Source of the DNA: Clostridia bacterium
GTDB taxonomy: Bacteria > Bacillota > Clostridia > CAKSNL01 > HGM11501
Direction of reading: 5' to 3'
Length of the DNA: 64,000 bases
Assembly (NCBI GenBank): GCA_045545475.1
Contig: JAZQAZ010000008.1
Span: 1 to 64,000, forward strand
The notes under the pieces were generated by a model. It was not told the DNA's origin. It ran no database searches and saw nothing but the letters and a program-made list of their open reading frames with translations. Positions 40,184 through 45,538 of the stretch are shown here, in pieces (the first letter of the stretch is position 1; the number at the start of each line of letters is the position of its first letter). Made by a program: the position numbers and the translations under genes.

Positions 40184-41080
40184 ATGGGGATTGAGAGTTG
40201 GCTTTTGATTGTCGCTGCAATTGCACCGGCAGTAGTTTTAGGCGGATATATTTTTAAGAAAGACAGGGTAGAAAAAGAACCTTTAAGCCTTTTGGCTTTG
40301 ATTTTTGCCATGGGCGTTTTCTCTTGCTTTCCCGCAATAATACTTGAAGAAATCGGAGAAGGATTGATTCTCGGGTTTATGGGAGACAGTATTAAAGTTA
40401 CAGAAGATGGTATTTACAGCATCGGAACAGGGGCATATTATATATACCAGGCACTGACTGCCTTTTTGGGAGTTGCTCTTATAGAAGAATTTTGCAAATG
40501 GTTTGCGATGAAAGGTGTTACGGCCAAACATAAAGAATTTGATAATATTTTTGATGGTGTTGTATATGGTGCTTTTGCGGCGTTGGGATTTGCTACTCTG
40601 GAAAATATATTGTATGTGCTTAATTACGGTTGGGGTACAGCTTTTACCAGAGCGTTTCTTTCCGTTCCGGGACACTTATCGTATGGAGTTATAATGGGAT
40701 ATTACTATAGCTTGTGGAAAATAGCTGAAAAAGCTAATTCACTGGAAAAGAATCTTAAAATCCAAGGAAAAATTCCTATGTATGCCAAAGAAATTTCGTA
40801 TAAGAAATTTGCATGGCTTAGTGTAATAGTGCCGACATTTTATCACGGAGCATACGATTTATGCTGTTTTTTGGGAAACGAAGCGGCAACATATACTATG
40901 GTTGGACTTGTAATATTCTTATACATATATTGTTTTGGGAAAATCAAAAAGATGTCGAGGGCAGACGGCTCAATAAGGAATTATTATATCAATGTAATAT
41001 TGGAAAAATATCCCGGACTTTCTGCTGATGTGGAAGCATCAGATAAAGAGATTTTGCGGGAAATCATTGAAAAGGCGTAA
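40184..41080 (+). CDS. PrsW family intramembrane metalloprotease
   Basis: D..EKEP, EEFCK, DGVVY, GFATLEN, RA.LSVPGH, HG.YD. Confidence 0.9.
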   Translation: MGIESWLLIVAAIAPAVVLGGYIFKKDRVEKEPLSLLALIFAMGVFSCFPAIILEEIGEGLILGFMGDSIKVTEDGIYSIGTGAYYIYQALTAFLGVALIEEFCKWFAMKGVTAKHKEFDNIFDGVVYGAFAALGFATLENILYVLNYGWGTAFTRAFLSVPGHLSYGVIMGYYYSLWKIAEKANSLEKNLKIQGKIPMYAKEISYKKFAWLSVIVPTFYHGAYDLCCFLGNEAATYTMVGLVIFLYIYCFGKIKKMSRADGSIRNYYINVILEKYPGLSADVEASDKEILREIIEKA

Positions 41081-41097
41081 TGCCGGGAGGATTGCAA

Positions 41098-41937
41098 GTG
41101 AAATTTGCGAAAAGATTTTCTGTTATGACCTTGGGCTGTATACTTCTGGCTCTCGGAGTATATTTCTTTAAGATACCAAACGGTTTTGCAACAGGAGGAG
41201 TAACGGGTATTGCAACTGTTCTTGCGAAAATTATTCCTGTTTCGCCGGCTGTGCTTATCTGGGGCTTTAACATTATTTTAATGATTGTAGGATTTGTCTT
41301 TTTGGGAAAAGAGAGTGGTTTTAAAACGGTTTATTGCTCCATGCTTTACTCTGCAATAACCTATCTTCTTGAACTTATCGTTCCGTTAAATGCTCCGCTT
41401 ACGGATCAGCCGTTTCTTGAACTGTTTTACGCCATGATTCTTACATCCGTCGGATCCGCGATGATTTTTAATGCAGATGCATCAAGTGGCGGAACTGACA
41501 TTGTGGCTCTGATACTAAAAAAATATACTTCGATAGATGTCGGAAAAGCTTTGCTGATAGTTGACTTTTTTGTAGCGGCAAGTTCGTTTGCAGTTTTTGG
41601 AATAAAAACAGGATTATATTCTCTCTTGGGACTTTTTGCAAAAGCGTTCATTGTGGATGCTGTAATAGAAAACCTTAATACGTGTAAGTATTTTGTCGTA
41701 ATAACTGCAAAAAGAGAAGAAATTGCAGAATTTATTATAAAAGAACTTCATCACGGTGCAACGGTAAATACTGTTATCGGCGAATACACAAAAGAAGAAA
41801 AGTCCATGATACATACTGTATGTAAAAGAAGCGAAGCAATTAAACTTAGAAATCGCATAAGGGAAATTGATCCTCATGCATTTATGATAATTACAACCAG
41901 CAGTGAAATAATCGGAAGAGGCTTTAAGAGCGTCTGA
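41098..41937 (+). CDS. YitT family membrane protein
   Basis: GGVTGIA, SSGGTDIVALI, IDP.AF, I.GRGF; GTG start after GGAGG. Confidence 0.88.
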   Translation: MKFAKRFSVMTLGCILLALGVYFFKIPNGFATGGVTGIATVLAKIIPVSPAVLIWGFNIILMIVGFVFLGKESGFKTVYCSMLYSAITYLLELIVPLNAPLTDQPFLELFYAMILTSVGSAMIFNADASSGGTDIVALILKKYTSIDVGKALLIVDFFVAASSFAVFGIKTGLYSLLGLFAKAFIVDAVIENLNTCKYFVVITAKREEIAEFIIKELHHGATVNTVIGEYTKEEKSMIHTVCKRSEAIKLRNRIREIDPHAFMIITTSSEIIGRGFKSV

Positions 41938-41940
41938 GAT

Positions 41941-41967
41941 AAAAAAGCATGCATCGCATGCTTTTTT
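41941..41967 (+). terminator. Terminator after the yitT-like gene
   Basis: AAAAAAGCATGC-ATC-GCATGCTTTTTT. Confidence 0.75.
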
Positions 41968-42050
41968 TATTTATGGGAAAGCAAAATTTGCAAAAAGAAG
42001 GGTTGAAAAACCTTGGACTTAATGATAATATATAAAAAAAGAATAATGAT

Positions 42051-42116
42051 GCAACTTTTAGTTGCGGAATATTCAAGCTTTGGTTGGTTGTAATAATTGA
42101 ATAATTTTGGTAAAAT
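42051..42116 (+). promoter_or_regulatory. Promoter with candidate XRE operators upstream of HTH-glmM
   Basis: Palindrome GCAAC-TTTTA-GTTGC 42051-42065; related CAAGCTTTGGTTG 42074-42086; TTGTAA-17 bp-TAAAAT (42088-42116) with TGn extension. Confidence 0.55.
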
Positions 42117-42147
42117 CCGAGTAGAATAATTAAAAAGGGATGATTAT

Positions 42148-43761
42148 ATGACTATAGGTGAAAAAATTGCAAGCCTCAGACAGAGAGCGGGACTTTCGCA
42201 AGAAGTTCTGGCTGAAAAAATGGATGTTTCACGTCAATCAGTTTCTAAATGGGAAATGGATCAGGCGTTGCCGCAGATTGATAAAGTACTTATGCTTTGT
42301 GAACTTTTCAATGTATCTTCGGATGAATTGTTGAGAGGTAATATTGAAATTGAAAAAAACATAAAAGAACATAACAGATATTTCGGTACAGACGGATTCA
42401 GGGGAGAAGCGAACATCAGCCTCACTTCTGTGCAGGCATATAAAGTCGGACGCTTTCTGGGATGGTATTTTTCTTCTGAACTTTCAGGGTGCAGCAAAGC
42501 AGGATATAAGCCTAAAATAGTAATAGGTAAAGATACAAGACGTTCCAGCTACATGCTGGAGTATTCAATCGTTGCCGGAATAACCGCATCAGGTGCCGAT
42601 GTGTATATGCTTCATGTTACAACAACTCCCAGTGTTTCTTATGTAACAAGGCAGGATGACTTTGATTGCGGCATAATGATAACGGCGTCGCATAATCCGT
42701 ATTATGATAACGGCATTAAAGTAATAAACAGATACGGAGAAAAGCTCGACGATAAGACGACAGCACTGATAGAAGCGTATCTTGACGGGGATATAAAATC
42801 ACTGGGAGTTTCGGGAGAAGATTTACCTTTGGCCAGCCGTGAACATATCGGATGCATTGTGGATTATGTATCCGGAAGAAACAGATATGTTGGATACTTG
42901 ATTTCACTGGCATCAAATTCTTATAAAAATCTTCGTATCGGACTTGATTGTGCCAACGGTGCATCATGGATGATTGCAAAGGCGGTATTCGGAGCACTCG
43001 GAGCACAGACTTTTGTTATCGGAGCGGAACCGGACGGATTGAATATCAATGCCGAGTGCGGTTCAACGCACATAGAGAAGCTTTCAAGGTTTGTTAAAGA
43101 AGAACATCTTGATGTGGGTTTTGCATTTGACGGAGACTGCGACAGATGTATTGCCGTGGACGGAAACGGAAATGTTGTTGACGGAGATGCAATGCTTTAT
43201 ATATTAGGAAAGCGATTAATGGCGAGGGGAATGCTCAATAAAAATACAGTGGTTGCAACTGTAATGTCGAACAGCGGATTTGTAAAATGCCTTAATGAAG
43301 CGGGAATGAAATGTGCACAAACCACAGTAGGAGACAGGTTCGTTTATGAATGTATGCAGGAGAACGATTATAGTCTTGGCGGTGAGCAGTCTGGCCACAT
43401 AATACTTAAAAAATATGCAACTACCGGCGACGGACTTCTTACAGCCATAATGATTTCCGAGGAAATTTGTGACAGTAAGCTTTCTCTGGCAGAACTTGCT
43501 GAGCCTGTTAAGCTTTATCCGCAGTACACCGTAAATGTAAAGGTAAAGGATAAAAATGTGGTTATGAAGGATGAACGTGTATTGGCGGAGGTTAAGAATG
43601 TGGAAAAACTGATTAACCATAATGGAAGAGTACTTTTAAGAATGAGCGGAACAGAGCCTGTTATCCGTGTAATGGTTGAGGCTGAAAGTGAAGAAAAAAG
43701 CATAGAATATGCAGAAATGGTTGCATGCAGTATAATCGAAGGGGGTCACAAAGTTGAGTGA
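42148..43761 (+). CDS. glmM: Phosphoglucosamine mutase with N-terminal XRE-family HTH fusion
   Basis: aa 1-65 XRE HTH (GLSQE.LAE...VSRQSVSKWE....P); then YFGTDGFRG, GKDTR.S, ITASHNP..DNGIK, FDGD.DR, GGEQSGH, R.SGTEP.IRVMVE in one frame. Confidence 0.92.
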   Translation: MTIGEKIASLRQRAGLSQEVLAEKMDVSRQSVSKWEMDQALPQIDKVLMLCELFNVSSDELLRGNIEIEKNIKEHNRYFGTDGFRGEANISLTSVQAYKVGRFLGWYFSSELSGCSKAGYKPKIVIGKDTRRSSYMLEYSIVAGITASGADVYMLHVTTTPSVSYVTRQDDFDCGIMITASHNPYYDNGIKVINRYGEKLDDKTTALIEAYLDGDIKSLGVSGEDLPLASREHIGCIVDYVSGRNRYVGYLISLASNSYKNLRIGLDCANGASWMIAKAVFGALGAQTFVIGAEPDGLNINAECGSTHIEKLSRFVKEEHLDVGFAFDGDCDRCIAVDGNGNVVDGDAMLYILGKRLMARGMLNKNTVVATVMSNSGFVKCLNEAGMKCAQTTVGDRFVYECMQENDYSLGGEQSGHIILKKYATTGDGLLTAIMISEEICDSKLSLAELAEPVKLYPQYTVNVKVKDKNVVMKDERVLAEVKNVEKLINHNGRVLLRMSGTEPVIRVMVEAESEEKSIEYAEMVACSIIEGGHKVE

Positions 43762-44416
43762 TAATATTAAGAATAAAGATTTGTTTGATATCAAAAATTC
43801 TTACATTGCACCGATTTTTGATGACTGCGAGTATCCTTGGGAGATAATATGCAAAATTAAAAGTTATATAGAAAATTTGATAAAAGAAGGAATACCCGGA
43901 TATACATTGCTTAAAGATGGCGTTCTTGTGGGTGAAAATGTTAAAATATACGATACCGTAACGATAGAGCCTCCTGTTGTGATAGGAAGCGGTACAGAAA
44001 TACGCCCCGGAGCTTTTTTGAGAGGAAACGTAATAACGGGAGAAAATTGTGTTATCGGAAATTCAACTGAAATAAAAAATGCTGTATTGCTTGACAAAGT
44101 CCAGATTCCTCACTATAATTATGTAGGAGATTCTGTGTTGGGAAATCATGCACATATGGGTGCCGGTGCGGTTTGCTCAAATCTTAAATCCGACGGAAAA
44201 GATGTGGTGATACACGGAAATGGCAACTATGAAACTCATCTTCGAAAGCTTGGCGGAATTTTAGCTGACGGAGCGGATGTTGGTTGCGGTTGTGTTCTTA
44301 ATCCCGGCACGGTAATCGGGAAAAATACCTCGGTTTATCCGCTTACGGCATTAAGAGGGATTTATCCCGAAAACTCTATAGTAAAAGGACAAAACACAGT
44401 CGTTAAAAGAAAGTGA
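43754..44416 (+). CDS. GlmU-like left-handed beta-helix acetyltransferase, without uridylyltransferase domain
   Basis: YPWE, IRPGAFLRG, GNSTEIKN, PHYNYVGDSVLG, SNLK.D, RKLG, GC..VLNPG; only 220 aa. Confidence 0.82.
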   Translation: MSDNIKNKDLFDIKNSYIAPIFDDCEYPWEIICKIKSYIENLIKEGIPGYTLLKDGVLVGENVKIYDTVTIEPPVVIGSGTEIRPGAFLRGNVITGENCVIGNSTEIKNAVLLDKVQIPHYNYVGDSVLGNHAHMGAGAVCSNLKSDGKDVVIHGNGNYETHLRKLGGILADGADVGCGCVLNPGTVIGKNTSVYPLTALRGIYPENSIVKGQNTVVKRK

Positions 44417-44426
44417 GGATTTTTTT

Positions 44427-45137
44427 ATGAAGTATATTATCGCAAAGGATTATGAAGAATTAAGCCGTAAAGCGGCAAATATCATTGCATCTCAGGTTAT
44501 AATGAAGCCTGATTGTGTTCTCGGCCTTGCAACGGGTTCATCTCCGGTGGGAACATATACGAGGCTTAGCGAAATGTGTACCTCAGGTGATGTGGATTTT
44601 TCTTTGGTTACAAGTGTTAATCTTGACGAATATGAAGGACTTGACGGTACAAATGACCAAAGTTACAGATATTTTATGGATAAGAATCTTTTCGAAAAAA
44701 TAAATATTGATAAGAAAAATACTCATGTTCCAAACGGATGTGCAAAAGACCTGAAAAAAGAAGGCGAGGAATATGACGCCTTGATTAAGAGCCTGGGCGG
44801 AATTGATATTCAGCTTCTGGGTATCGGTCTTGACGGACATATCGGCTTTAATGAGCCTGATGAATTTTTCACCAAAGAAACCCATGCGGTTGAACTTGAT
44901 CCTTCCACAATCGAGGCAAATTCCAGATTTTTTGCTTCAATAGAAGACGTTCCTAAGCGTGCAATAACAATGGGAATGATGTCAATCATGCAGGCAAAAA
45001 AGATTTTGCTTATAGCTAACGGAAAAAATAAAAAGGAAATTCTTGACAAGGCATTAACAGGTCCAATAACTCCTATGGTGCCTGCATCAATTTTACAGCT
45101 TCATCCGGATTTAACTGTAATATATACAGAAAATTAA
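44427..45137 (+). CDS. nagB: Glucosamine-6-phosphate deaminase
   Basis: LGLATGSSP, NLDEY, GGIDIQLLGIG.DGHIGFNEP, PASILQLH. Confidence 0.96.
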   Translation: MKYIIAKDYEELSRKAANIIASQVIMKPDCVLGLATGSSPVGTYTRLSEMCTSGDVDFSLVTSVNLDEYEGLDGTNDQSYRYFMDKNLFEKINIDKKNTHVPNGCAKDLKKEGEEYDALIKSLGGIDIQLLGIGLDGHIGFNEPDEFFTKETHAVELDPSTIEANSRFFASIEDVPKRAITMGMMSIMQAKKILLIANGKNKKEILDKALTGPITPMVPASILQLHPDLTVIYTEN

Positions 45138-45141
45138 ATGT

Positions 45142-45173
45142 AAACTCAGACGCATCAGGCGTCTGAGTTTTTT
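45142..45173 (+). terminator. Terminator after nagB
   Basis: AAACTCAGACGC-ATCAG-GCGTCTGAGTTTTTT. Confidence 0.8.
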
Positions 45174-45256: not shown

Positions 45257-45538
45257 TTGAGAGAATATATCGAAAACCGAACATTGACTCTTGGCGAATA
45301 TATTGTGGAAAATAAAAGCACGGTTCGCACGGCGGCAAAGAAATTCGGCATTTCTAAATCCACAGTACATAAAGATGTTTCCGAAAGACTCAGAGAAATT
45401 GACAGAGGACTTTTTGAGGAAGTCAGAGCTATCCTTGACGAAAATAAAGAAGTAAGGCATATAAGGGGCGGATTGGCTACAAGAAAAAAGTATTCGGAAA
45501 AAAGAAAAAATAGTATTGTTAAGAAGGAAAAAATGTGA
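45257..45538 (+). CDS. spoIIID: Sporulation transcriptional regulator SpoIIID
   Basis: YIE.R....GEYI.....TVR..AK.FG.SKSTVHKD..ERL, RHIRGG.AT..KY. Confidence 0.95.
   Translation: MREYIENRTLTLGEYIVENKSTVRTAAKKFGISKSTVHKDVSERLREIDRGLFEEVRAILDENKEVRHIRGGLATRKKYSEKRKNSIVKKEKM

Follow-up and report, generated by a model that had tools for sequence, protein, structure and literature searches.

An XRE-type helix-turn-helix domain fused to phosphoglucosamine mutase in uncultured Clostridia: a predicted trigger enzyme at its own promoter

Overall architecture of the locus

The window considered here is a stretch of 64,000 nucleotides (nt) at the start of contig JAZQAZ010000008.1 of a gut Clostridia bacterium, the genome of which is a draft of 50 contigs, 2.74 Mb in size and 95% complete. 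It carries a gene for phosphoglucosamine mutase (GlmM) in which the enzyme is preceded by an XRE-type helix-turn-helix (HTH) domain; we call the product HTH-GlmM. The gene is the first of three that lie between terminator-like hairpins, the others encoding a left-handed beta-helix (LbH) acetyltransferase and NagB, and upstream of it are a promoter and two putative operator sites (Table 1). An earlier reading of this DNA, referred to as the original prediction, had described an intact HTH joined in frame by a short linker to a complete GlmM with no methionine at the usual start, and had proposed a trigger-enzyme-like autoregulator.

Table 1. Features of the HTH-glmM locus, with positions in the window.
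Feature	Position	Strand	Basis or remark
Terminator-like hairpin, 12-pair stem and T run, ends YitT/DUF2179 gene	41941..41967	+	5' border of the glmM unit
Possible promoter P1: TTGAAA, 17 nt, TAATAT, TG-extended	42003..42031	+	Promoter match; transcripts would cross both operator sites
Putative operator site 1, perfect GCAAC-N5-GTTGC (GCAACTTTTAGTTGC), centre ~-65 from inferred P2 start	42051..42065		Palindrome kept in fused loci
Putative operator site 2, degenerate TCAAG-N5-GTTGG (TCAAGCTTTGGTTGG), centre ~-43	42073..42087		Same CAA-N7-TTG core as site 1; right half abuts -35
Promoter P2: -35 TTGTAA (42088-42093), 17 nt, TG-extended -10 TAAAAT (42111-42116)	42088..42116	+	Promoter match
HTH-GlmM open reading frame (ORF), 537 residues	42148..43761	+	
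XRE-type HTH domain, residues 1-63	42148..42336	+	Pfam HTH_3, predicted helices, identity and substitution ratios
Flexible linker, residues 64-76	42337..42375	+	Low identity, variable length, low model confidence
Complete GlmM body, residues 77-537, and stop codon	42376..43761	+	TIGR01455, catalytic residues, structure alignments
LbH acetyltransferase, 220 residues, TTG start	43754..44416	+	Candidate glucosamine-1-phosphate N-acetyltransferase
nagB, glucosamine-6-phosphate deaminase	44427..45137	+	TIGR00502, 264.8 bits, cut-off 236.9
Terminator-like hairpin closing the three-gene unit	45142..45170	+	Hairpin scan

The N-terminal domain matches Pfam HTH_3 over residues 7-61 (E 7e-14, 52 bits against a cut-off of 23) and all four PGM_PMM domains follow within residues 77-526. 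The enzyme body belongs to the NCBIfam glmM equivalog TIGR01455, with 497.4 bits over residues 79-527 where the cut-off is 447.55. Two catalytic loops, the phosphoserine loop S181-H182-N183-P184 and the loop D328-G329-D330-C331-D332-R333, are present. In an alignment of 80 fused and unfused GlmMs S181, H182, N183, D328, G329, D330, D332 and R333 are invariant, Pro184 is nearly so and Cys331 is variable. Two further groups, E413/S415/G416/H417 and R498/S500/G501/T502/E503, are likewise invariant. We take the four segments to be, in order, the phosphoserine loop, the Mg-binding DxDxDR, the sugar-binding GEQSGH and the phosphate-binding R-x-SGTEP loops.

An AlphaFold2 model calculated with the 80-sequence alignment has a mean predicted local distance difference test score (pLDDT) of 93.5 and a confident GlmM body. 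Five HTH helices are predicted (residues 3-13, 18-24, 29-36, 44-54 and 58-62) in a block with pLDDT of 87-94, and the score falls below 50 at linker residues 70-73. The closest solved chains, PDB codes 7ojr, 3pdk and 6gyz, align from residue 76-77 of HTH-GlmM onwards with E values of 1e-114 to 1e-121; in this structure search the HTH part was covered by no solved structure.

Unfused relatives begin M-x-K-Y-F-G-T-D-G. At the corresponding point HTH-GlmM reads E-H-N-R-Y (GAA CAT AAC AGA TAT) with no start codon, the junction sequence reading ...LLRGNIEIEKNIKEHNRYFGTDGFRG, and none of 22 fused orthologues inspected has a methionine immediately preceding K/R/H-Y-F-G-T-D-G. The architecture and the missing start thus stand as originally described. 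HTH-GlmM is the sole GlmM-level match in the source genome, where the runner-up, at 98.7 bits, is a paralogous phosphohexomutase, and no second GlmM-level match occurs among those listed for the fused genomes G002, G007, G009, G010, G015 and G022. We predict that HTH-GlmM is the working mutase for glucosamine-6-phosphate (GlcN-6-P) and glucosamine-1-phosphate (GlcN-1-P) and the only one in the cell.

Recurrence of the fusion

The sample searched comprised 399 scored Clostridia species genomes, among them the 13 that make up the rest of the window's family; the order to which that family is assigned in GTDB contains just 14 genomes. Of these 399, 29 contain a frame free of stop codons that matches the query from its first residue. 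The 29 represent 12 GTDB families, and with the window's family set aside the fusion is found in 24 of 385 genomes. In a thirtieth fused genome (G003) the gene is interrupted by a contig end. The best 120 protein clusters (77-99% identity) in a collection of 5.8 billion proteins, assembled from NCBI, ENA, JGI and Logan sources, all contain both the HTH and the PGM domain of Pfam. The titles given to fused loci at NCBI name Acutalibacteraceae, Ruminococcus, Christensenellaceae, Lachnospiraceae, Eubacteriales and Clostridia, and all are metagenome-assembled genomes. Most of the clusters are nameless and the only source name among those listed (P0029) is 'phosphoglucosamine mutase'. A search of cluster representatives with residues 1-140 gave as best matches proteins with multiple HTH repeats and pieces from the N-terminal end of fused proteins, and no full-length fused representative, presumably because clusters made at 50% merge fused and unfused forms.

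The fusion recurs across independent assemblies, it is not unique to this one and it is not an assembly artefact. One genome of 1.5 Mb (G319) has two full-length fused copies, on contigs C13 and C24, each 76% identical to the query. Two apparent N-terminal extensions of other GlmMs were rejected as fusions. In locus L108 (Faecalibacillus) the upstream ORF is separate, and in L014 there is a TAA in the extended frame with an LbH gene directly upstream, so that the extension was read as a separate gene.

Selection and ancestry

Mean pairwise identity among the 29 fused proteins is 71% for the HTH (residues 1-63) and 75% for GlmM, compared with 22% for the linker, which also varies in length. Ratios of nonsynonymous to synonymous substitution (dN/dS, Nei-Gojobori) in eight closer pairs range from 0.02 to 0.15 in the HTH, from 0.03 to 0.07 in GlmM and from 0.12 to 1.06 in the linker. 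They are rough, since most pairs are saturated or nearly so for dS, and some GlmM and linker values are undefined where dS is not computable. The low ratios and the high identity indicate that the HTH is under purifying selection and not degenerate in orthologues.

The GlmM cores of 115 sequences were placed in a maximum-likelihood tree (LG+G4, quick search) with typical GlmMs of 41-45% identity as the root. In it the 29 fused genes form one clade with two others, supported by a Shimodaira-Hasegawa-like approximate likelihood ratio (SH-aLRT) value of 99. The two are L043, a fused gene cut by a contig end, and L034, a gene that lacks the HTH. A clade of fused genes with one HTH-less member fits a single gain and a single loss. 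The HTH-less glmM of L034 (2230-2420), sister to L048, has its own ribosome-binding site and start. In the window's genus the fused gene is the sole GlmM of five genomes, whereas five others have a typical GlmM, and in the tree these typical proteins cluster with those from the rest of the family. On this distribution the fused gene was probably acquired by transfer and took the place of the resident glmM.

HTH genes located 3' of unfused glmM in L065, L086 and L089 were considered as a precursor of the fusion and rejected, being for a different, membrane-anchored XRE protein with no palindrome. Near-identical GlmM genes, with branch lengths of ~0.03, occur in L013 (G005), L109 (Faecalibacterium prausnitzii) and L081 (labelled Barnesiella), genomes that are labelled as different families or phyla, and G005 has a typical GlmM as well. 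This likeness looks like bin contamination rather than biology.

The operator and promoter

The original prediction placed a GCAAC-N5-GTTGC palindrome and a degenerate copy just upstream of the -35 element, and both are confirmed (Table 1). The distance of 10 bp between the half-site centres of the palindrome fits a symmetric dimer, and the centres of the two sites are separated by 22 bp, which puts both on one face of the DNA.

Conservation of the palindrome follows the HTH. Within 300 nt 5' of fused glmM the best match is perfect in 22 of the 29 loci, 9/10 in five and 8/10 in two. By comparison, 87 rows that carry the label unfused and have at least 200 nt of upstream sequence contain no perfect palindrome and two at 9/10. 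These rows include L010 and L043, fused-clade genes for which the 'upstream' is not a real one because a contig end cuts the gene. Upstream of the HTH-less L034 the best match is 7/10, a remnant ACAAT-N5-ATTGC where the operator would be. With at least 8/10 in 29 of 29 fused loci and a perfect copy in 0 of 87 unfused rows, we judge the co-occurrence of palindrome and HTH to be strict.

An anchored alignment of the sequences upstream of the fused genes reveals four conserved elements, namely the palindrome, the second element, the TTG of the -35 and the TG-extended -10; the N5 spacer, the flanks and other intergenic columns have diverged. At site 2 the right half, GTTG[GC]T, is retained at a fixed offset in 20 of the 29 loci and the full core CAA-N7-TTG-N-TTG in 12. 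In 23 of 29 the best match to a promoter opens 22-23 nt past site 1, and in many loci the core promoter is TTGATA, TTGAAA or TTGACT, 17 nt and a TG-extended TAnnAT. In L007 about 22 bp are missing and a single perfect palindrome abuts the -35, with the register unchanged. Ten of the 29 fused loci have a match resembling P1, with its -10 ending 19-22 nt before site 1, but in AT-rich sequence of this kind such a match is weak evidence. An Rfam scan of the window gave no family at the gathering threshold, hence no riboswitch or ribozyme in the leader.

The palindrome of glmM is more than a chance occurrence, given that it recurs where other intergenic columns of the orthologues are not kept and that the source genome as a whole contains three perfect palindromes against ~1.5 expected. 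The second lies 47 nt before a gene for a free-standing regulator of 253 residues with XRE and Zn_ribbon_2 domains (contig C10, 158067-158828; the region 158006-158828 corresponds to 507-1329 of L127). The arrangement is GCAACAGAGAGTTGC followed directly by the -35 TTGATG, 17 nt and TATAAT. The HTH_3 domain of this paralogue is 41% identical to the fused HTH over residues 6-64. It was found in five of the 28 other fused genomes (E <= 1e-15), and a perfect GCAAC-N5-GTTGC abuts the -35 of its own promoter in all seven loci, one in the source genome and six in those five. The palindrome thus belongs with HTHs of this kind, and the operator-promoter module common to glmM and the paralogue suggests that the promoter-operator-HTH cassette of an XRE autoregulator became fused onto the front of glmM. 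HTH-GlmM and the paralogue coexist in 6 of the 29 fused genomes, and in these there may be cross-talk between the two.

A composite pattern of site, -35, spacer and -10 is found three times in the source genome, at glmM, at the paralogue and at a place that is apparently coding, and not at all in a reversed-sequence control. On this count the predicted regulon is essentially the operon itself. When palindromes relaxed to 9/10 were sought outside long ORFs, seven sites were obtained, of which only that of glmM is convincing. One lies 54 nt before a gene of 190 residues, and glmM apart, no amino-sugar gene was identified at the seven.

Operon and metabolic context

The start of the acetyltransferase gene overlaps the glmM stop by 8 nt (43754-43761), and this gene is the next after fused glmM in most fused loci. 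Few-base overlap of the two genes suggests translational coupling. A comparable overlap is seen in many fused loci. In family searches the acetyltransferase resembles only the C-terminal half of GlmU-type proteins. The operon would cover steps around GlcN-6-P by means of NagB, GlmM and a probable GlcN-1-P acetyltransferase.

No glmS above cut-off was found in the source genome, where the top match has 68 bits, nor was a bifunctional glmU, the operon's own acetyltransferase being the best match to glmU; four nagA genes exceed the cut-off. Matches to the glmU model on contigs C14 and C20 were considered as N-acetylglucosamine-1-phosphate uridylyltransferases and rejected, as they are GlgC/GlgD and IspD. 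The route to UDP-N-acetylglucosamine (UDP-GlcNAc) in this organism appears to be non-canonical or dependent on salvage.

Upstream of the unit, at 40184-41937, are genes for a PrsW-family intramembrane protease and a YitT/DUF2179 membrane protein. The YitT start shares one base with the PrsW stop codon and the gene ends at 41937. YitT is adjacent to fused glmM only in the three closest fused loci (L003-L005). Just past the operon terminator an ORF of 93 residues (45257-45538, +) resembles what we take to be a small SpoIIID-type HTH regulator of sporulation.

Assessment of the proposed mechanism

Does HTH-GlmM read its own promoter? If so, in which direction does it act, and could something other than HTH-GlmM account for the palindrome? 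We consider, with a probability of roughly 0.75, that HTH-GlmM is a bifunctional enzyme of the trigger type that, bound to its own promoter, controls the operon of glmM, the acetyltransferase gene and nagB. Residues 77-537 would interconvert GlcN-6-P and GlcN-1-P. GlmM is a dimer, as is known from solved structures, and two copies of the HTH (residues 1-63) would recognize the 15-bp GCAAC-N5-GTTGC as a dimer. HTH domains would occupy the strong site at ~-65 and the weaker site at ~-43, and the occupancy of both would set transcription of the three genes to give an autoregulatory loop. The autoregulator put forward in the original prediction is supported by the recurrent fusion, the purifying selection on the HTH and a palindrome that travels with it.

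Several observations weigh against this reading. The case for DNA binding by HTH-GlmM is one of comparative genomics. The 29 fused loci are not independent because they share one origin, and common descent of the promoter might in principle explain the palindrome, though the columns around it have diverged. Site 2 is only partly conserved, with the full core in fewer than half of the loci. Two gut metatranscriptome runs from one study (assembled shares 0.08 and 0.05) provided no start site and no contig over the HTH-GlmM junction; a 308-nt contig from metatranscriptome data is identical to 43896-44203. Finally, the placing of site 2 means that repression is not established, since a site next to but not over the -35, centred at ~-43, is also where class II activators bind, and lambda cI at PRM.

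Readings divide first on the sign of regulation. We lean, by a modest margin, towards negative feedback, given a core promoter close to consensus and the precedent of the characterised trigger enzymes of this type, BirA, NadR and PutA, which a passage of PMC5397151 describes as repressors. The possible upstream P1 also counts for repression. The same autoregulator might instead be an activator, in which a dimer at site 2 contacts sigma region 4 or alpha and site 1 helps to load site 2. In 20 of 29 fused loci the -35 follows the right half-site with no gap, and the register is unchanged in L007 after loss of a site and in all seven paralogue promoters. Activators that have to contact RNA polymerase typically show so strict a register. 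However, activator-dependent promoters usually have a poor -35, which is not what is observed here, and activation, although the most serious competitor, is on balance unlikely.

The palindrome might be read by another regulator, for example the XRE and Zn_ribbon_2 protein, leaving the HTH of GlmM with a different role, such as nucleoid tethering or protein contact, or with none. The shared palindrome does mean that a second potential reader exists in the source genome. With the paralogue in just five of 28 other fused genomes, however, it cannot be what reads the palindrome of glmM in general; that palindrome is perfect in genomes that lack the paralogue (G007, G009, G010, G015, G022, G089, G146, G176, G198, G269, G299 and G308). 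The absence of perfect palindromes upstream of the 87 unfused rows, the decayed site of L034, at most 7/10, and the purifying selection on the fused HTH also argue against a separate reader, which we regard as improbable.

A still smaller chance attaches to the idea that the palindrome works by folding, as an RNA or DNA hairpin that terminates or attenuates transcription from P1, rather than as a protein site. The terminator scan does return it as a weak hairpin on the minus strand, and P1, if used, would transcribe it. The stem has only five to six pairs (six in the scan), though, and the plus strand has no conserved T run. In L007 and the seven paralogue promoters the motif is upstream of the -35 and so outside the transcripts of that promoter, and a second copy conserved only in its half-site fits protein recognition better than folding. 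That the fusion itself results from an assembly error, a frameshift or a mis-called start, or is a decaying gene with a remnant HTH, has a negligible chance, for apart from the draft state of the source genome no support was found, and the frame is stop-free in 29 species-level genomes, in further NCBI metagenome-assembled loci and in 120 protein clusters, with no start codon at the junction in any orthologue inspected and an HTH as conserved as the enzyme.

How the enzyme might be coupled to the promoter, in the original prediction through sugar-phosphate binding or phosphorylation state, is a matter of conjecture. An extended model, which we hold tentatively and at somewhat worse than even odds, would have active-site occupancy or phosphorylation state (GlcN-6-P, GlcN-1-P, glucosamine-1,6-bisphosphate, Ser181 phosphate) alter the engagement of its pair of HTH domains with the tandem operators. 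The working mutase would then double as a metabolite-responsive transcription factor that senses flux to UDP-GlcNAc and sets expression of nagB, glmM and the acetyltransferase gene. It would replace the GlcN-6-P-sensing glmS ribozyme in the fused genomes without glmS (19 of 29), capture of the cassette from an XRE autoregulator having been followed by horizontal spread over at least 12 Clostridia families. The distribution of glmS, present in 10 of 29 fused genomes against 274 of 370 others (related genomes, so not independent counts), weighs against the model in that a replacement of glmS-ribozyme control is at most a tendency.

Comparison with known systems

GlmM lies where the route to UDP-GlcNAc begins, and from UDP-GlcNAc come peptidoglycan and the teichoic and capsular polymers; in model Firmicutes the control of GlmM is post-translational or by way of glmS. 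In common with the canonical enzymes from B. subtilis (7ojr), B. anthracis (3pdk) and S. aureus (6gyz), HTH-GlmM has four domains and the catalytic loops, and these chains enter the alignment at their residue 3 (23 in the tagged 3pdk). Typical Clostridia GlmMs are ~43-45% identical to HTH-GlmM and lack the 76 N-terminal residues of HTH plus linker. The canonical gene is arranged in the order cdaA-cdaR-glmM-glmS, in contrast to HTH-glmM with its acetyltransferase gene and nagB as neighbours.

The nearest HTH in the PDB to the fused domain is that of ImmR from ICEBs1 (7t8i, E 3.5e-8). The XRE and Zn_ribbon_2 protein is closer to home, with an HTH_3 domain and an operator abutting the -35 in the same register as site 2 of HTH-GlmM. 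The two differ in that the one ends in a zinc ribbon and the other is an enzyme, and a common DNA specificity of the two HTHs is inferred from nothing beyond the shared motif.

An HTH combined with a fold that binds phosphosugars or substrate analogues is found in RpiR/MurR (SIS domain), in the ROK-family NagC/Mlc and in BzdR (shikimate-kinase-like domain). In these the effector domain is generally no longer a working enzyme of the cell. HTH-GlmM differs in keeping the invariant catalytic residues and in being the only GlmM of its genome.

The closest parallels are the trigger enzymes BirA (biotin ligase and repressor), PutA (proline dehydrogenase and repressor), NadR (NMN adenylyltransferase, ribosylnicotinamide kinase and repressor) and RbkR (archaeal riboflavin kinase and regulator). 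All four join an enzyme and a DNA-binding domain in one polypeptide, as HTH-GlmM does, and have a palindromic site in the promoter of their own pathway or gene, for which the sites upstream of every fused glmM are the predicted counterpart. RbkR, as described in passages of PMC5397151, shows autoregulation, tandem sites and loss of the DNA-binding domain in some lineages, to which the two operator sites and the HTH-less L034 in the fused clade may be compared. Ligand control of DNA binding has been shown in these systems and is conjecture for HTH-GlmM. What sets HTH-GlmM apart is the alpha-D-phosphohexomutase fold, the five-helix XRE HTH and the pathway to UDP-GlcNAc and the cell wall.

The original prediction knew of no characterised example, and a literature search by titles and abstract openings, with subscription journals outside it, likewise found no published HTH-GlmM fusion and no description of this operator. 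Trigger enzymes with a fused DNA-binding domain are known; the enzyme, the HTH class and the pathway would be new. A passage of PMC5397151 confines the list of such enzymes to cofactor and amino-acid metabolism, and a cell-wall enzyme would, if the reading is correct, join that short list. An enzyme that reads its own promoter would represent a new solution for amino-sugar homeostasis, in a fusion that is common in uncultured gut and rumen Clostridia. The system is compact, with one protein, a 15-bp site and a natural control without the HTH in L034. The operator-promoter module held in common with a free-standing XRE regulator offers, in addition, a concrete model of how an enzyme could gain autoregulation by a single fusion event.

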